Made by a program: the position numbers and the translations under genes. From Candidatus Omnitrophota bacterium (lineage in GTDB: Bacteria > Omnitrophota > Omnitrophia > Omnitrophales > Aquincolibacteriaceae), in the NCBI GenBank assembly GCA_022709525.1, contig JAKLIQ010000002.1:262003-326002 (forward strand): a stretch of 64,000 bases of DNA, given 5' to 3'. The notes beneath the pieces were generated by a model, which ran no database searches, was not told the DNA's origin, and worked only from the letters and a program-made list of their open reading frames with translations. Below, piece by piece: positions 27,351 to 63,246 of this stretch. The number at the start of each line of letters is the position of its first letter. The stretch's first letter is position 1.

Positions 27351-27397
27351 TTTTTACCTTTCACGCGAAGGAAAACCCGGCCGTTGTCTCCTGGCTC

Positions 27398-27520
27398 TTG
27401 GCAACCTACTCTCCGGCCTTCCCGCCTTTTTCAGGCAGTGGCCTCAAGGATTTCGTTCCAAGTTACAGTTGCGCGGCAGCAACGGATTTGCACCGTTTTC
27501 CGAAAACCGTCCGGATCCGC
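27398..27520 (-). promoter_or_regulatory. cobalamin (B12) riboswitch upstream of the TonB-dependent receptor
   Basis: Minus-strand RNA reads GGUGCAAAUCCGUUGCUGCCGCGCAACUGUAA...GAGGCCACUGCCUGAAAAAGGCGGGAAGGCCGGAG. This matches the conserved GGUGC, AAUCC, GCCACUG (B12 box) and GGGAAGGCCGG elements. Confidence 0.75.
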
Positions 27521-30167: not shown

Positions 30168-30264
30168 AGCCTGTCTTGACCTCTGCTCGGAGGCATTTTA
30201 AAAATCTCAAATCTGAAATTTGAAATTTATGGATAATGGGTTGATATTCTGACTAGGCAAGTAC

Positions 30265-30385
30265 AAACCTACTCGCGGCCTTCCCGCCCTTTAATCTTGC
30301 TCGGGGCAGTGGCGATTCGCTTTCGTCCTTACCGACAGCGGCGGCACCGTGGAGTCCCCGCAAAACTCAGCGGGTCTCTCTTCCC
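30265..30385 (-). promoter_or_regulatory. cobalamin (B12) riboswitch upstream of btuF-btuC-btuD
   Basis: Minus-strand RNA reads GGUGCCGCCGCUGUCGGUAAGGACGAAAGCGAAUCGCCACUGCCCCGAGCAAGAUUAAAGGGCGGGAAGGCCGCGAG. It carries the GGUGC, AAUCGCCACUG (B12 box) and GGGAAGGCCGC elements. Confidence 0.75.
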
Positions 30386-30469
30386 AAATGCTCCCATTAT
30401 CATACTTTCTTCAAAGAACGATAATCTTGACGTTCAGTATAAAGAAAAAACTCATCAGCGCAACGTTTT

Positions 30470-39275: not shown

Positions 39276-40064
39276 TTACGTCAGATCGTCCAGCACTTTA
39301 GTCGTCACGATAAAATTGGCGTTCTTCAGGCGCAGGATGTTCTTGCCTTTGAGTACCCACTGCAACGTTTTCAAAAATTCCGTGCGATCCGCGATATGGA
39401 CCAGGCAACCGCGATAAGCGATGCTGACCTGGCCGCGTTCTTCGGAAACGACCAGCGCGATCGCGTCGGTTTTTTCGGTGATCCCGATCGCGGCGCGGTG
39501 GCGCGTACCGAAACTCGGCGCAAGGTCCGTCAGGGCGGCGAGCGGAAGGATCCCTTTAACGGCTTGGATGCGGCCTTTGTGAACGATCAACGCCCCGTCA
39601 TGGACAGGAGAAGAGGTCAGGAACAGAGGGACCAGGATCTCAGCTTTGATCTCGCCGTCGAAGGGCATCCCGCCCTTCAGGAAGGGACGAAGCGGCTGTT
39701 TCCGCTGCAGGACGATCAGCGCGCCCACCTTACGCGACGCCATCCGCTCCACGGCCAGCCAGATCTCGAGAAGATAGTGCGGAAGCTGCGGTATTTTCCT
39801 GAAAAGATTGCCCACAAGCTCGCCGAACCACAAAGCCCCGGCAATGAGCATGTCCGCACAAAGCAACCCGCCGGCAACGGCCAAAAAGGCCGTGCCGGTC
39901 AGGCGGATCAGTCCCGGATCGACCGGCGGCGCGGCAAAGAAGAGCGCTCCCCAAAGACAAAATAGGCCGACCAGGTATTTTAAAGAGGCGCGAAGCCAGA
40001 AAACCTTGAGTGGGTAAAGAAAATAGCCGAGCGCGATCGCCGCGGCCGCAACGGTAATGAACAT
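39276..40064 (-). CDS. cdaA: diadenylate cyclase (c-di-AMP synthase, CdaA type)
   Basis: Three N-terminal TM segments and a DAC domain with DGA and GTRHRAAIGITEKTDAIALVVSEERGQVS motifs. Start at internal ATG 40064. Confidence 0.8.
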   Translation of the reverse strand: MFITVAAAAIALGYFLYPLKVFWLRASLKYLVGLFCLWGALFFAAPPVDPGLIRLTGTAFLAVAGGLLCADMLIAGALWFGELVGNLFRKIPQLPHYLLEIWLAVERMASRKVGALIVLQRKQPLRPFLKGGMPFDGEIKAEILVPLFLTSSPVHDGALIVHKGRIQAVKGILPLAALTDLAPSFGTRHRAAIGITEKTDAIALVVSEERGQVSIAYRGCLVHIADRTEFLKTLQWVLKGKNILRLKNANFIVTTKVLDDLT

Positions 40065-40202
40065 ATTCTCCCCTCTGAAAGGTTGTTGATCCTTCAATAT
40101 AGTTACGGCTATTGGGGATTTTAATGAAGTGCGGCGCGCCATGCGCAACGGCCGGCGCGCAACGAATTGACCCCGAGTTTTTTGTTGCGCGCCGCGCGAC
40201 GT

Positions 40203-43539: not shown

Positions 43540-46020
43540 ATGAAAAAACTTTTTTCCCGATTCTTTCTTTTTAGCTCATTCTGCCTGTGGCAAACCGCTG
43601 CGTGGGCCAGCGAAGCGGATCTGAAGATCCCGGATCTTCACGAAGGCCGTTTTGACATGTTTGGCGGCCTCACGGGTTTTGAGATCCTTCTTTACGGTGC
43701 CCTCGTTATCCTAGGAACCGTCGGAGTTGCGCTTTTTCAGTTCTTGAGGGTCAAATCCCTTCCCGCGCATAAATCGATGCTCGACATCGCGGAGACGATC
43801 TTTCAAACCTGCAAGACCTACCTCAAGCAGCAGGTGAAGTTCCTTGCGATCCTGTTCGCGATCATCGCCTCTGCGATGAGTTATTACTTTGTAGGACTCA
43901 AGCACGAACCTCTGGCAACCTTGGGCCTGGTCCTCCTTTTTTCGGTCATTGGTATGGGGGGATCCGCTCTGGTTGCGTACTATGGGATCCGCATCAACAC
44001 CTATGCAAATGCCCGGACAGCTTTCGCCTCCTTGCGCGGAAAACCTTGGGATGTAGTCAATATCCCTTTGCGCTCGGGTATTTCCGTCGGCCTTTTCCTG
44101 ATCTCGGTCGAGTTGGTGATGATGGTGATCATCTTGCTCTTCGTGCCGCGCGAAATCGTGGGCTACTGCTTTTTGGGTTTTGCCATCGGAGAATCGCTCG
44201 GAGCAAGCGCTCTGAGGATCGCGGGTGGTATTTTCACCAAGATCGCCGATATCGGCTCGGACCTCATGAAGATCGTTTTTAATGTCAAAGAGGATGATCC
44301 GCGCAATCCCGGCGTTATCGCCGACTGCACGGGCGATAACGCGGGCGATTCGGTAGGGCCGACCGCCGACGGTTTCGAGACCTACGGCGTGACCGGCGTC
44401 GCGCTTATTTCGTTCATCACCCTCGCGATCAAAGATCCTTCGCTTCAGGCAAAGCTCATCGTCTGGATCTTCGCCATGCGCTTTTTGATGGATTTCATGT
44501 CGGGAGCCGCCTATTTCATCAATCAGGCTATTTCCGAGCGTAAGTACAAGGGCCTGAAGGAATTCGATTTCGAAGAGCCGCTCACGCGCCTGATCAAGAT
44601 TGCTTCAGTCCTCTGCATCTCCACTTCCTACGGAATGTCGTACCTGCTTGTAGGTGATCTTCCCGACCCGACGCTCTGGTGGAAACTTGCCTCAATCATC
44701 ACTTGCGGAACTTTGGCGGCCTACCTCATTCCTGAATTCACCAAGATCTTCACTTCTTCCCACTCGAAGCATGTTCAAGAGATCGTCATCGCTTCACGCG
44801 AAGGCGGAGCGTCGTTGACGATCCTTTCGGGCCTCGTGGCAGGATACTTCTCGGCTTTTTGGAAGGGCATCCTTATCGTGGGCCTGATGTTCGGGGCCTA
44901 CCTGATCGCGGGAATGGGGCTCCAGAACATCATGCCTCACGCCTCTATTTTCGCTTTCGGCCTTGTGGCTTACGGCTTTCTCTGTATGGGCCCCGTCAAT
45001 ATCGCGGTGGATTCTTACGGACCGGTCACAGACAACGCCCAATCGATCTTTGAACTCGCTCAGACAGAATCGATCCCCGGGATCGAAAAAGAGATCGAAA
45101 AAGATTTCGGATTTAGACCCGACTTCAAAATAGGAAAACATTACCTTGAAGCCAATGACTCGGCCGGGAATACTTTCAAAGCGACGGCCAAGCCCGTGCT
45201 GATCGGGACCGCCGTTGCCGGGGCGACCACCATGATCTTTTCGATCATCCTGCTTCTCCAGGAACACCTTCAATCTGCAGCGATCGCCGCGGCGGCAGGC
45301 GGGTTCGTTCCGGAAAATATCGGCCAAATCTTATTAAACGAAAAAGAGTCGCTCACGGCCGCGCCGATCCTCTTGGGAATTCTCTGCGGCGGCGCCGTGA
45401 TCTTTTGGTTCTGCGGTGCTTCCATTCAAGCTGTAGCCACAGGGGCCTACTCCGCCGTCGAGTACATCAAGAAAAACTTCAACCTCGACAAGAAGGAAGC
45501 TAATCGCGCGGATTCGATCAAGGTTGTGCAGATCTGTACCGAGTACGCCCAAAAAGGGATGTGGAATATTTTCGTGGGGCTCCTTATGCTCACGCTCGCC
45601 TTTGCGATGTTCGATCCCTATTTCTTCATTGCCTACCTCATCGCCATCGCCGCCTTCGGGCTTTTTCAGGCGATGTTCATGGCCAATGCAGGCGGTTCGT
45701 GGGATAACGCGAAAAAAGTTGTTGAGGTTGATCTGAGAGAGAAGGGCACGCCGCTTCATGCCGCAACCGTCATTGGCGACACGGTGGGAGATCCCTTCAA
45801 AGACACCACTTCAGTCTCGCTCAATCCTATCATTAAGTTCTCAACGCTCTTCGGTATGCTTGCCGTCGAGATCGCGATCAAGATGAACCCAACCACTACC
45901 ACCATTAGCGGAGCGGTCTTCTTTATTGCGGGGCTGTATTTTGTCTGGAGATCTTTTTACAAAATGCGGATCCCGCAGCTGAAGGTCCCGCTCGCGACAG
46001 AAAAAGCGGTCATTGTATAG
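43540..46020 (+). CDS. hppA: membrane-bound proton/sodium-translocating pyrophosphatase
   Basis: 826 aa, about 16 TM segments, and V-PPase motifs (DCTGDNAGDSVGPTADGFETYG, GGSWDNAKK). The N-terminal signal-like extension is as in the ORF track. Confidence 0.9.
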   Translation: MKKLFSRFFLFSSFCLWQTAAWASEADLKIPDLHEGRFDMFGGLTGFEILLYGALVILGTVGVALFQFLRVKSLPAHKSMLDIAETIFQTCKTYLKQQVKFLAILFAIIASAMSYYFVGLKHEPLATLGLVLLFSVIGMGGSALVAYYGIRINTYANARTAFASLRGKPWDVVNIPLRSGISVGLFLISVELVMMVIILLFVPREIVGYCFLGFAIGESLGASALRIAGGIFTKIADIGSDLMKIVFNVKEDDPRNPGVIADCTGDNAGDSVGPTADGFETYGVTGVALISFITLAIKDPSLQAKLIVWIFAMRFLMDFMSGAAYFINQAISERKYKGLKEFDFEEPLTRLIKIASVLCISTSYGMSYLLVGDLPDPTLWWKLASIITCGTLAAYLIPEFTKIFTSSHSKHVQEIVIASREGGASLTILSGLVAGYFSAFWKGILIVGLMFGAYLIAGMGLQNIMPHASIFAFGLVAYGFLCMGPVNIAVDSYGPVTDNAQSIFELAQTESIPGIEKEIEKDFGFRPDFKIGKHYLEANDSAGNTFKATAKPVLIGTAVAGATTMIFSIILLLQEHLQSAAIAAAAGGFVPENIGQILLNEKESLTAAPILLGILCGGAVIFWFCGASIQAVATGAYSAVEYIKKNFNLDKKEANRADSIKVVQICTEYAQKGMWNIFVGLLMLTLAFAMFDPYFFIAYLIAIAAFGLFQAMFMANAGGSWDNAKKVVEVDLREKGTPLHAATVIGDTVGDPFKDTTSVSLNPIIKFSTLFGMLAVEIAIKMNPTTTTISGAVFFIAGLYFVWRSFYKMRIPQLKVPLATEKAVIV

Positions 46021-46086: not shown

Positions 46087-47100
46087 TCAATAGCCGATGA
46101 TCGTGACAACAAGATAGGCCAATAAAAGCAATCCGCCGACCCAGCGCTTCAGGTAATCGCCGCTTAACCATGCGCCAGCGCGGAAAAGCAACAAGATCCC
46201 CAGCATTGCGGGAAAATAGAGAGTGAAAAAAATAACCGGAACTTCTAGGCCGCCTCGGGTTGCGGCCGTGGCCGCACCCGTCACAAAAAGAACGTTCAAG
46301 ATATCCGCGCCGATGATATTCCCCACCGCGATCTCCCCGTGACCGCGCCGGACAGCCGTCAGAGAAGTGACCAACTCAGGCAGCGATGTGCCAAAAGCCA
46401 CAAGCGTGGCGGCCACGATGCTACTCGGCACGCCTATACGCAAAGCTAAAATCTCCACCGCCGTAATGAGCGCTTGGGACGAGATCACTACCAAACCCGC
46501 TCCGCAAACAAGTTTGGCAAAAACCCACGGCATTGAACGCGAGTCCGTCTTAATGAGATCGACGCCATCCGGTAAATTATCCCGCCGGGCCCAAATGATC
46601 GAGATATAGAGGTACGCGGCCAACAAACCAAGCATAAGAAATCCAGCCCATCGCGGAATATTCCCACCGGCCCCAAGAACATCCCGCCACCCCGGGAATG
46701 GAAACGCGAGAACAACAAGAAGCACCGCCGCGGCAACCTGGATAAACCCTTGCCGGTTGACAACGCTTTTAACAAGAGGAAGGGGCGAGATCAGGGTCGC
46801 CAAACCGAGGATGAGCCCGGTATCACAAATAATGGAACCAACGGCGTTGCCGAGCGCTAATCCGGGGTTTCCCTGGACAGCCGCCAGCACAGAGACCGTG
46901 GCCTCAGGCAATGTAGTGCCTAGACTGACTATCGTTGCGCCGATCAGGGCTTTGGGTACGCGCCACCGCTCCGAGAGCGTCACCGCTTCATCGATGAGCC
47001 AGTTGGCCCCTTGGGCTAACGCGTAAAAACTGGCTCCGATCACACCGGCTAAAATTATCAACGGCGCTTGGTCCAATAGGACATGCAACCACGCTTCCAT
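46087..47100 (-). CDS. CaCA-family sodium/calcium (cation) antiporter (YrbG-like)
   Basis: Two alpha-repeat motifs, GTTLPEATVSV and GTSLPELVTSL, with 10 TM segments. Confidence 0.8.
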   Translation of the reverse strand: MEAWLHVLLDQAPLIILAGVIGASFYALAQGANWLIDEAVTLSERWRVPKALIGATIVSLGTTLPEATVSVLAAVQGNPGLALGNAVGSIICDTGLILGLATLISPLPLVKSVVNRQGFIQVAAAVLLVVLAFPFPGWRDVLGAGGNIPRWAGFLMLGLLAAYLYISIIWARRDNLPDGVDLIKTDSRSMPWVFAKLVCGAGLVVISSQALITAVEILALRIGVPSSIVAATLVAFGTSLPELVTSLTAVRRGHGEIAVGNIIGADILNVLFVTGAATAATRGGLEVPVIFFTLYFPAMLGILLLFRAGAWLSGDYLKRWVGGLLLLAYLVVTIIGY

Positions 47101-47139
47101 CCAAATACTCCTTCGCTAAAAACCTGGATTTGGCCCAAC

Positions 47140-47176
47140 AAAAGAAGGCCGATCCCGAAGGACCGGCCTTCTTGCG
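47140..47176 (-). terminator. intrinsic terminator/attenuator hairpin inside the long 5' leader of the CaCA gene
   Basis: Minus-strand RNA AAGAAGGCCG-guccuucgggau-CGGCCUUCUU is followed by UUGUUGGG. 34 nt further on are the SD GAAGGAG and the ATG at 47100. Confidence 0.45.
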
Positions 47177-47199
47177 AGAATTCTACCTTAAATAAAAAC

Positions 47200-47335
47200 A
47201 ATCTGCAACGCCGACGGGATTAGTTCCTGTTCTTTTGGTTCGGACCGCAGATTAGCCCTTCCCGCCAAACATCCGGCAGGATTCACCGTTTGATTTCTCC
47301 CGTTCCCTGCAATAGCAGGTATTAGGCGATCATGC
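47200..47335 (-). ncRNA. candidate riboswitch/structured leader upstream of the CaCA antiporter (possible ydaO/c-di-AMP-class; unverified)
   Basis: Minus-strand RNA contains repeated AAUC-containing blocks (GAAAUCAAACGGUGAAUCCUGCCGG, GGGCUAAUCUGCGGUCCGAACC) and GGGAACGGGAG / GGCGGGAAGGG. These resemble conserved ydaO-motif segments (ACGGGGUGAAUCC, CCGAAC) recalled from memory. Confidence 0.3.
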
Positions 47336-47363
47336 GCCGCGCGTTTCCGCGCCGGAGCAAGTC

Positions 47364-47657
47364 TTACATTTTTGCTTCTTTCAAGGCTTCCTTTTTGGCG
47401 GCCTTGATGTCTTTGATTTCCTGCTTTGCTTCCGTTTTCACTTCTTTAATGGCTTCCTTCGCTTCCGCCTTTATTTCTTTCGCGGTAGCCGGGGCGTAGA
47501 GTTCGTCGACTTCGAAGGCCTCTCCGACCACGTCACCGGTTTCGGCATCTTCCGCCACAAGAAGCGTTTCCTCGACGGCAACGGGTTCCTGTTCGACGGC
47601 CAATGCAAAAGCGGGACAAAGCATGATCGCCACTAAAAACATCGCGATACTTTTCAT
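47364..47657 (-). CDS. small secreted Lys/Glu/Ala-rich protein
   Basis: Signal peptide MKSIAMFLVAIMLCPAFALA, then an acidic stretch and a KEAKEAIKEVKTEAKQEIKDIKAAKKEALKEAK low-complexity tail. Confidence 0.4.
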   Translation of the reverse strand: MKSIAMFLVAIMLCPAFALAVEQEPVAVEETLLVAEDAETGDVVGEAFEVDELYAPATAKEIKAEAKEAIKEVKTEAKQEIKDIKAAKKEALKEAKM

Positions 47658-47757: not shown

Positions 47758-47979
47758 TTATATTTTAACGTCTTCGGCATCATCATCGTCCGGGTCCACC
47801 GAAGGGCTCGTGAGCTCATCGGTCATCACGATGCCCTCCCCTGCGACATCAGCCGAATCTTCCGTAAATGTCATATCTTCCGCCACAGCAACAATACTGT
47901 TCTCAGACTCGGCGAAAACCAGCCCCTGAGAAAGCAACATGAGGGCCATTAAAATTCCTGCTATCCATTTTGTTTTCAT
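47758..47979 (-). CDS. small secreted acidic protein (paralogue-like of the preceding one)
   Basis: Signal peptide MKTKWIAGILMALMLLSQGLVFA, then an Asp/Glu-rich region with the same VAVAED..A..GE layout as the neighbouring protein. Confidence 0.4.
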   Translation of the reverse strand: MKTKWIAGILMALMLLSQGLVFAESENSIVAVAEDMTFTEDSADVAGEGIVMTDELTSPSVDPDDDDAEDVKI

Positions 47980-48325
47980 TTTTTGATCTCCGGTTGAATA
48001 TGAAAAACGCCTTCCGGTTCCAAGCAATACCCTGCCATTGCCCATGGCAAGCCGTTACCTAAAACTGAAGGCGCCTAATGCCTACTCTCCATCGCTGGTG
48101 GAAAAACCCGCAAGCCCTTCCTGCGCAATGCGTTCGGAGGTGACAAAAAACCTTCCAGGGCACGTTCCGTTTCTCGCTGCGATGCTCTCGAGAAGTCTAC
48201 GCTGAAAGCGGTTTGGTGTCAAATGGACGGAAAGGGCCATAAGCCACAAAGGCCCCTATTTTTGGTATTTGTGCCAAAAAGATCCAAAAGACCTAACTGC
48301 ATGAAAATAAACAGGATAAGACCTG

Positions 48326-63060: not shown

Positions 63061-63246
63061 GTCCGTTTCCCTCTTCATGCCGGGGCCCGCAAAAATGAAA
63101 AGGGCCGCCGTCTGACTTCTGCGTCAGATGGCGGCCCGACCACCCTCAATACCTCTAACGAATCTTTCCGTTAGACCCTTTCCCAAAAATGAATATCGCG
63201 TTCATGCTAGCTCTCTTATTTTAAAAATGCAACTTCCATTTTGATA

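Follow-up and report, generated by a model that had tools for sequence, protein, structure and literature searches.

A divergent member of the c-di-AMP (ydaO) riboswitch family with a terminator hairpin upstream of a CaCA-family antiporter gene in an Omnitrophota bacterium

We analyzed a stretch of 64,000 nucleotides (nt; hereafter the window) from Candidatus Omnitrophota bacterium (assembly GCA_022709525.1, contig JAKLIQ010000002.1, positions 262,003 to 326,002), centering on the untranslated leader of a gene that encodes a CaCA-family cation antiporter. Judged from sequence comparison, this leader is a real, unusually divergent member of the cyclic di-AMP (c-di-AMP; ydaO) riboswitch family combined with a terminator hairpin, c-di-AMP being its putative ligand. 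We assign it to the family despite a score below the Rfam threshold because homologous leaders covary, the pseudoknot is present, a more distant syntenic orthologue (locus L107) scores above the threshold, a covariance model (CM) of the new sub-class, R1, matches a classical ydaO member (L100), and the terminator is conserved. Together with RF00379 as the sole meaningful Rfam match, these observations bear out a first-pass annotation of the same DNA, which had suggested a ydaO/c-di-AMP-type family and a transcription-attenuation layout.

The element lies on the minus strand. The stop codon of the upstream open reading frame (47364-47366) and the ATG of the CaCA gene (47100) delimit a 263-nt non-coding leader (47101-47363), close to the 260 nt that had been proposed. 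Its minimum free energy (MFE) is -102.8 kcal/mol, which corresponds to z = -3.66 relative to dinucleotide shuffles, and none of 200 shuffles was equally stable. All the sequence blocks that had been quoted from the leader were located within it: GGUGAAUCC at 47287-47279, GGGCUAAUCUGCGG at about 47258-47245, CCGAACC at 47243-47237 and ACGGGAG at 47303-47297. The aptamer and its parts are as follows.

47195 to 47336, minus strand: ydaO/c-di-AMP-type aptamer (RF00379, 32.4 bits; R1, 138.9 bits; covariation)
47328-47325 / 47212-47209, minus strand: aptamer helix P1
47319-47306, minus strand: aptamer helix P2
47303-47298 / 47219-47214, minus strand: aptamer helix P3
47287-47286 / 47238-47237, minus strand: aptamer helix P5
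47281-47260, minus strand: aptamer helix P6
47258-47242, minus strand: aptamer helix P7
47247 to 47253, minus strand: pseudoknot 5' strand AAUCUGC in the P7 loop, 7-bp Watson-Crick complement of 47200-47206
47200 to 47206, minus strand: pseudoknot 3' strand GCAGAUU, immediately 3' of P1, complement of the P7 loop

At gathering thresholds, an Rfam scan of the window returned nothing in the leader; elsewhere, it returned two cobalamin riboswitches and nhaA-I. When 47000-47500 was scanned permissively, the sole meaningful match was RF00379 (c-di-AMP/ydaO), at 47194-47338 on the minus strand. The alignment is full-length (model positions 1-134 of 134) and scores 32.4 bits, with E = 8.2e-6 for the 501-nt search and about 1e-3 when extrapolated to the whole window. 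In the same interval, no match at E <= 10 was found for yybP-ykoY (RF00080), ykoK (M-box, RF00380), Na+-I, nhaA-I (Na+/Li+) or the terC motif, and the leader was therefore rejected as a yybP-ykoY, M-box, Na+ or Li+ riboswitch. Hence, of the Rfam comparison that the first-pass annotation had proposed as a check, RF00379 was recovered over its full length, yet below its gathering score, and the other candidate classes were not recovered.

R1, built from leaders of the window type, found exactly one copy in the window, at 47195-47336 (138.9 bits). In return, R1 recognized the classical L100 with 36.4 bits (E about 2e-6), a leader that RF00379 scores at 99.1 bits. With R1, the syntenic orthologue L107 scored 93.4 bits, and with RF00379 it scored 50.0 bits and so passed the gathering score. 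That cut-off (38 bits) is an operational threshold rather than a structural feature. Since L107 lacks P4 and the CGuCAG segment and has a 2-bp P5, yet passes the Rfam threshold, the low scores of the other members indicate a few extra substitutions rather than another fold.

Relatives of the leader were sought at several kinds of loci. Among 80 CaCA-orthologue loci from GTDB species representatives (51-64% identity), neither a regular expression for the ydaO core nor the sub-class CM found an aptamer, which indicates that the aptamer is not a general feature of CaCA genes. L087, found via the protein collection and whose CaCA protein is 84% identical, has the same leader type as the window (RF00379, 34.8 bits, below 38). 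L086, whose CaCA protein is 86% identical, has no aptamer and keeps the 5' hairpin and a homologous terminator hairpin. A metagenome scan with a pattern that fixed the junction cores and P3 only returned 12 loci, of which 11 have the window's architecture and one, L100, is a classical ydaO member. Finally, TerC orthologues sampled at 63-75% identity provided L107 as a bridge to members that pass the RF00379 threshold, and no aptamer was found at L106 or L108-L110 in that sampling.

Both three-way junctions typical of the class, P1-P2-P3 and P5-P6-P7, are present in the window RNA. Covariation was assessed in 14 sequences aligned by CM, namely the 12 sub-class members together with L107 and L100, since MAFFT mis-registered the 5' half when classical ydaO was included; L105 was left out of the pair counts because the CM put its 87-nt insertion in the P7 loop. 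The ydaO-type structure with its pseudoknot is paired in 97.4% of cells. We counted 15 compensatory pairs compared to 5.2 +/- 1.5 in column shuffles (0/500 reached 15) and 3-6 when the 3' partners were slid by 1-3 columns, in an alignment that was fitted to the nested helices and favors them, the pseudoknot being in neither CM. P2 and P6 covary inside the sub-class, and P1, P7 and the pseudoknot show compensatory changes relative to L100. P3 and P5 are invariant and thus uninformative, P3 having been fixed by the search pattern.

A pseudoknot of at least 7 bp arose in 7 of 20,000 shuffles of the loop and tail. Across the alignment this helix is 97-98% paired; three double changes separate it from that of L100, and L103 has G-U in place of A-U. 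In classical members, the pseudoknot both forms a cap over ligand site 2 and is the part that responds to the ligand (PMC11963983). Furthermore, all four A-rich junction strands are kept in the window (UAAU, UGAAU, GAA and CUAA). GAA and CUAA are invariant in all members, and UGAA(U/C) is found in 10 of the 12 sub-class members; the deviations are a U instead of a G before the AA of J1/2 and a C instead of an A between P3' and P1'. In the published description of the class, ligand site 1 is flanked by P3 and P5, and site 2 lies beneath the pseudoknot, flanked by P1 and P7 (PMC11963983); the predicted architecture of the window RNA matches this arrangement.

Downstream of the aptamer, the leader continues with a linker and a hairpin.

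47175 to 47199, minus strand: AU-rich linker GUUUUUAUUUAAGGUAGAAUUCUCG, 25 nt, between the pseudoknot and the terminator
47137 to 47173, minus strand: intrinsic-terminator-like hairpin (47173-47142) with a UUCG loop, dG -25.8 kcal/mol, plus a U-rich tract

The hairpin AAGAAGGCCGGUCC-UUCG-GGAUCGGCCUUCUU comprises 14 bp with a 9-bp GC core and is followed by UUGUU. The U-rich run UUCUUUUGUU ends at 47137, leaving 36 nt to the CaCA ATG. The first-pass annotation was correct about a hairpin and U-tract before the ATG, with a distance (34 nt) and a helix length (10 bp) that are revised here. A simple terminator scan did not list the hairpin; RNAfold and covariation support it. A GC hairpin is found in every member (28-36 nt, dG -22 to -30 kcal/mol; longer in L094, L095 and L103), with an A-rich 5' base and a U-rich 3' side, and several relatives have weak U-tracts. 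With explicit arm definitions for the relatives, the terminator arms of 8 members were 98.2% paired and contained 12 double-change cells compared to 3.6 +/- 1.9 in shuffles (0/500), and 5 compensatory pairs compared to 1-2 in slid controls. The linker between aptamer and terminator measures 25 nt in 8 of 12 members and may act as a pause site, belong to the expression platform or hold an internal promoter. In L094 (about 1960-2040) and L095 (about 2150-2235), a structured insert of ~75-80 nt separates the terminator arms and enlarges the hairpin to 110-113 nt (dG -52 to -56 kcal/mol). This insert may be a small mobile element, one resembling a miniature inverted-repeat transposable element (MITE), or an added domain.

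The remaining features that bear on transcription and translation of the unit are listed below in the direction of transcription, with the cyclase gene last.

48194 to 48222, minus strand: candidate sigma-70 promoter TTGACA-17-TAGACT, 10/12 consensus match, 5' of the small genes
47758 to 47982, minus strand: small predicted secreted protein, 74 aa, first gene of the unit (called gene)
47364 to 47657, minus strand: small K/E-rich predicted secreted protein, 97 aa (called gene)
47333 to 47359, minus strand: P0, GC-rich hairpin directly 5' of the aptamer, without U-tract, specific to the sub-class
47108 to 47113, minus strand: Shine-Dalgarno (SD) sequence AAGGAG, 7 nt 5' of the CaCA ATG
46087 to 47100, minus strand: CaCA-family cation antiporter, 337 aa, downstream gene (PF01699, two repeats, 167.9 bits)
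39279 to 40202, minus strand: CdaA-like diadenylate cyclase (DAC; PF02457, 126.3 bits, RHRAA motif)

A promoter scan reported no promoter-like site between the upstream gene and the CaCA ATG. Because no such site was reported and only 36 nt separate the U-tract from the ATG, transcription of CaCA in the window must pass through the hairpin. This excludes, for the window, a scenario that the first-pass annotation had raised against its own proposal, namely a CaCA promoter located 3' of the hairpin; the strong SD that it had described is AAGGAG at 47113-47108. Such a downstream promoter seems to hold in the aptamer-less L086.

The candidate promoter at 48222-48194, which has a counterpart (TTGACA-17-TACACT) 5' of the small gene in L102, is likely the start of a unit composed of the small genes, the riboswitch and CaCA, as its consensus match suggests. 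Since CaCA is read through the hairpin, a good promoter-like site lies 5' of the small genes and P0 lacks a U-tract, the most economical transcription unit comprises the promoter, the small gene(s), P0, the aptamer, the terminator and the transporter. The stop codon of the 97-aa gene lies 4 nt 5' of P0. No Pfam family matched the 74-aa or the 97-aa protein. Homologues of the 74-aa gene lie directly 5' of the leader in L086, L087 and L094, and homologues of the 97-aa protein (52-76% identity) adjoin the 5' side of the riboswitch in L095, L096, L098, L099, L102 and L104.

Several side observations were made at this side of the locus in relatives. At L086:368-470, a long P0-like hairpin comes after the small gene and is itself adjoined by the homologue of the terminator hairpin (dG -29.8 kcal/mol), and about 100 nt with the promoter-like element TGATTTAAT lie between this homologue and CaCA. 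A conserved motif, GTTCCCAAAG...TTTTCTG(A/C)TT(T/A)AATA(C/A)GC, lies 3' of the hairpin in L107 (2424-2455), at the equivalent place in L099 and L096, and at about 470-500 in L086. It resembles an extended -10 promoter, TGnT(T/A)(T/A)AAT with TTCCCA 17 nt upstream. The window and L087 retain only a degenerate remnant of this motif (TTTTAGCG, about 47124-47117 in the window). At L098:2615-2690, three consecutive GC hairpins lie between the small gene and the aptamer, one of them similar to the P0 of L101 and the last being the P0 of L098 itself.

Downstream of the element, the window and L087 carry CaCA, and 13 relatives carry TerC. The protein of the window, named sodium:calcium antiporter of Candidatus Omnitrophota by NCBI, and TerC are both predicted divalent-cation exporters. 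In L093, L095, L097, L098, L099, L102, L105 and L107, the order is (PEGA -) GT2 - small gene - riboswitch - TerC - convergent H+-pyrophosphatase (H+-PPase), and the H+-PPase of TerC-type loci is about 90% identical to that of the window. L087 has the order riboswitch - CaCA - TerC. In the window, the order is riboswitch - CaCA - convergent PPase, and no TerC was found anywhere in the 64 kb. The usual target of the sub-class element thus appears to be TerC rather than CaCA, which the first-pass annotation had not foreseen. As the simplest history, TerC would be the original target, CaCA would have been inserted behind the riboswitch, and TerC would then have been lost in the lineage of the window. 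The membrane H+/Na+-pyrophosphatase gene of the window (43540-46020, plus strand) is convergent with CaCA (46087-47100, minus strand), with 66 nt between the stop codons.

We favor, with moderate confidence, a divergent c-di-AMP riboswitch whose ligand-bound state leads to termination, that is, an OFF switch that gates read-through into the CaCA exporter. Transcription would start 5' of the small secreted-protein genes, presumably at the candidate promoter, and run into the aptamer (47336-47195), where the RNA would adopt the two three-way junctions P1-P3 and P5-P7. Two molecules of c-di-AMP, the presumed ligand, supplied by the CdaA-type cyclase, would lock the pseudoknot between the P7 loop and the 3' tail; with the pseudoknot locked, RNA polymerase would stop at the GC hairpin and U-tract (47173-47137), and CaCA would be off. 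When c-di-AMP is low, as occurs under hyperosmotic or K+-limited conditions in studied bacteria, polymerase would read through and the exporter would be expressed. As the DAC-domain cyclase gene lies in the window, 7 kb from the leader, the organism can be predicted to make c-di-AMP; the presence of cdaA had been pointed out in the first-pass annotation and was confirmed. We infer c-di-AMP as the ligand of the window RNA, and take the OFF polarity from the family (PMC9960051, PMC6488665, PMC9337991), not from the sequence of the window. In Bacillus subtilis, c-di-AMP falls and divalent cations are expelled upon hyperosmotic shock (PMC8844918), and an OFF switch on an exporter would couple low c-di-AMP to divalent-cation expulsion. 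The c-di-AMP signal may thereby also control divalent-cation exporters, CaCA in the window and TerC in relatives.

Several observations weigh against this interpretation. The window scores 32.4 bits where the gathering score of RF00379 is 38, and the 11 metagenomic relatives align over the full length of the model but are likewise sub-threshold (24.2-37.4 bits). P4 is absent, P5 is effectively 2 bp, and a short A-rich linker (J5/3) stands in place of the CGuCAG that separates P5' from CUAA. Insertions into this linker are tolerated (+9 nt in both the window and L095, +87 nt in L105). The nucleotides that flank P1 (47324 and 47213 in the window, alignment columns 13 and 136) adjoin ligand site 2 (PMC11963983); 12 of 12 sub-class members have U/C there, where L107, L100 and the Rfam consensus have G/A. 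Two syntenic relatives, L086 and L106, have no aptamer. A promoter-like sequence, TTGCAG (47208-47203)-N17-TAGAAT (47185-47180), spans the pseudoknot 3' strand and the linker. Reported ydaO targets are transporters of K+, amino acids and osmoprotectants and cell-wall enzymes (PMC7266159, PMC9960051); CaCA and TerC do not match this typical regulon of K+ and osmoprotectant/amino-acid transport and cell-wall remodeling, and neither is among the ydaO targets given in PMC7266159, PMC9960051 and PMC5737381. In the literature covered, we found no report of a c-di-AMP riboswitch in Omnitrophota or before CaCA or TerC, and the gene most often controlled by Mn2+ riboswitches and by the orphan terC motif is TerC (PMC5737381).

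Furthermore, no statistically supported antiterminator was found, as three candidate helices were no better than shuffled controls, and neither progressive-transcript nor whole-leader MFE folds contained anything that competes with the terminator, whose hairpin stays folded. The rejected candidates were (A) pairing of the terminator 5' arm with the P6-3'/P7 region, which ranked first as its partner in 8 of 12 members and for which the fraction of shuffled arms at least as good was 0.04-0.52; (B) pairing of the pseudoknot tail UUGCAGAUU with AAUC-nn-GCAA at the terminator base, at -2 to -6 kcal/mol (fraction of shuffles at least as good, 0.03-0.94); and (C) pairing of the 5' flank and P0 5' strand with the linker (0.055-0.89).

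The sub-class also carries additions to the fold. P0 is present in 12 of 12 members with a dG of -12 to -18 kcal/mol despite differing sequences, and an RNAalifold consensus shows three compensatory pairs in it, on an imperfect MAFFT alignment. The aptamer of L105 is intact but for an insertion of ~87 nt in J5/3 (L105:2285-2372), which forms hairpins and occupies the same junction as the 9 extra nucleotides of the window (47236-47224) and L095.

These departures could mark a variant of the ydaO fold in specificity or stoichiometry, one that binds a single c-di-AMP at site 1, or pApA, 3'3'-cyclic GMP-AMP (3'3'-cGAMP) or ATP, and that is tuned to divalent-cation exporters rather than to K+/osmolyte genes. 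All 12 close members score below the gathering threshold compared to 99 bits for the classical example, the change from G/A to U/C beside P1 and site 2 is concerted, J5/3, where CGuCAG is missing, has become a variable insertion site, and the association with TerC and CaCA is atypical, TerC being a target of Mn2+ riboswitches (PMC5737381); weakening of P1 or site 2 leaves site-1 binding functional (PMC11963983). Nevertheless, we consider such altered sensing unlikely, as P3, P7, the pseudoknot and each of the four A-rich strands are conserved, the host encodes a diadenylate cyclase, and L107, which shares the locus and the same P7, pseudoknot and J5/3 sequences, passes the Rfam threshold. No ydaO specificity variant was found reported in the literature covered. 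The sub-threshold scores, together with aptamer loss in L086 and absence in L106, which imply that the locus can do without it, could also be read as signs of a decaying relic that no longer binds a ligand and survives as a structured spacer and terminator. This is barely credible given that the core is nearly invariant while the flanking proteins are only 73-90% identical among relatives, that P2, P6 and the terminator show compensatory changes, and that insertions are confined to tolerant loops and junctions.

Other explanations retain the aptamer but change how CaCA is controlled. If TTGCAG-N17-TAGAAT were an internal promoter (transcription start site at about 47173-47176) driving CaCA, the hairpin would mainly be a terminator for the small gene or a 5' stabilizer, and the aptamer would affect only 3'-end formation of the upstream mRNA or add minor read-through. 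In 10 of 14 members, a -10-like hexamer does follow TTGCAG at a spacing of exactly 17 nt, and TAGAAT is invariant in 8 members but the spacer is not; L099 and L107, which lack the linker hexamer, have TTCCCA-N17-T(T/A)(T/A)AAT with a TGn extension 3' of the hairpin and the best U-tracts, and in the aptamer-less L086 the small gene is still followed by the hairpin and by a downstream promoter-like element. Conversely, the -35 element matches at only 3 of 6 positions and is fixed anyway as a pseudoknot strand, the promoter scan reports none in the linker, the members are closely related so that counts are not independent, and transcripts begun there would at once meet a -26 kcal/mol hairpin and U-tract, which would be self-defeating. 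A conserved, covarying aptamer right before a terminator is the canonical attenuator design, and we regard the internal promoter as quite unlikely. The failure to find an antiterminator, the weak U-tracts of several relatives and the whole-leader MFE fold, in which UUGCUCC of the 5' flank pairs with GGAGUA of the SD region, would suit a post-transcriptional action on translation or mRNA stability, for example by long-range SD occlusion as in the c-di-AMP riboswitches of Thermoanaerobacter and Corynebacterium; translational ydaO switches do exist (PMC11963983, PMC9960051). However, the pairing of 5' flank and SD is not conserved since the downstream genes and SD contexts of relatives differ, some 90 nt separate the SD from the pseudoknot 3' strand, and structural selection acts on the hairpin, whose spacing from the aptamer is constant, all of which makes a post-transcriptional switch improbable. 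Attenuation by a c-di-AMP aptamer remains our preferred explanation.

The window contains other riboswitches, away from the CaCA gene. An nhaA-I RNA (RF03057) lies at 63126-63178 on the minus strand (48.9 bits; gathering score, 37), 16 kb off and unrelated to the CaCA gene. As the nhaA-I class includes Li+/Na+-sensing riboswitches, this is a second ion-related riboswitch within the window. Two cobalamin riboswitch aptamers (RF00174) lie on the minus strand at 27386-27501 (80.3 bits; matching model positions 47-167 only) and 30222-30412 (39.9 bits).

With 12 of 12 close members below 38 bits, the Rfam gathering threshold misses a coherent c-di-AMP riboswitch lineage in an uncultivated phylum. 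If the ligand is c-di-AMP, the regulon would widen from K+, osmolyte and cell-wall genes to the predicted divalent-cation exporters TerC and CaCA, in line with a growing view that osmoadaptation includes the efflux of divalent cations (PMC8844918). The riboswitch association also hints at the function, in Omnitrophota, of two transporter families that are poorly understood. The loci form a natural series for dissecting the contribution of the aptamer (aptamer with TerC, with CaCA-TerC, with CaCA, and aptamer-less CaCA), and the altered nucleotides beside site 2 and the insertion-tolerant J5/3 offer leads on retuning of the ydaO fold. We hold it rather doubtful that the Omnitrophota sub-class is a functional ydaO variant in which the G/A to U/C change beside P1, the remodeled J5/3 and the added P0 have altered site 2 (another c-di-AMP stoichiometry or threshold, or another adenine nucleotide) and which is dedicated to the export of divalent cations by TerC/CaCA; if true, it would reveal a previously unrecognized link of cyclic-dinucleotide signaling to Ca2+/Mn2+ homeostasis.

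Among known systems, the yybP-ykoY Mn2+ riboswitch (RF00080) and the orphan terC motif (PMC5737381) resemble the elements of the relatives in their 5'-leader position and TerC target, but differ from the window element by unrelated folds and by metal-ion ligands instead of the presumed dinucleotide. The c-di-AMP riboswitch of Thermoanaerobacter pseudethanolicus (PDB 4QLM/4QLN; PMC5393176, PMC11963983) shares the architecture and the position and similar length of the pseudoknot, which there is the ligand-sensitive regulatory element (PMC5393176, PMC11963983). The pseudoknot sequences are entirely different (CUCCUUCG/CGAAGGAG compared to AAUCUGC/GCAGAUU in the window), and whereas the 3' strand overlaps the SD in T. 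pseudethanolicus, resulting in translational control, the window has it some 90 nt away from the SD, with 25 nt between it and the terminator. The tandem Na+/c-di-AMP system of Dehalobacter (PMC9337991) likewise switches off a gene for ion/osmotic stress by means of a c-di-AMP aptamer that has a terminator of its own, but includes a second aptamer, which the window leader lacks.

The closest counterpart is the ydaO/kimA family itself (RF00379; B. subtilis kimA and the Bacillus thuringiensis kdpFABC leader, PMC6488665). The window element differs from it by its score (32.4 bits, below 38), U/C instead of G/A flanking P1, lack of P4 and CGuCAG, a 2-bp P5 and the added P0, as well as by its location between two genes rather than after a mapped promoter, its occurrence in Omnitrophota, its CaCA/TerC targets and the failure to find an antiterminator. 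In common with the family, it has P1-P3 and P5-P7 in two three-way junctions, the pseudoknot and the A-rich strands, an aptamer followed by a separate intrinsic terminator, an ion transporter downstream and a host with a diadenylate cyclase. The B. thuringiensis kdp leader is an experimentally validated OFF switch in which the aptamer is followed by a terminator (PMC6488665), and the layout of the window, an aptamer of ~140 nt with a separate terminator, is the same.

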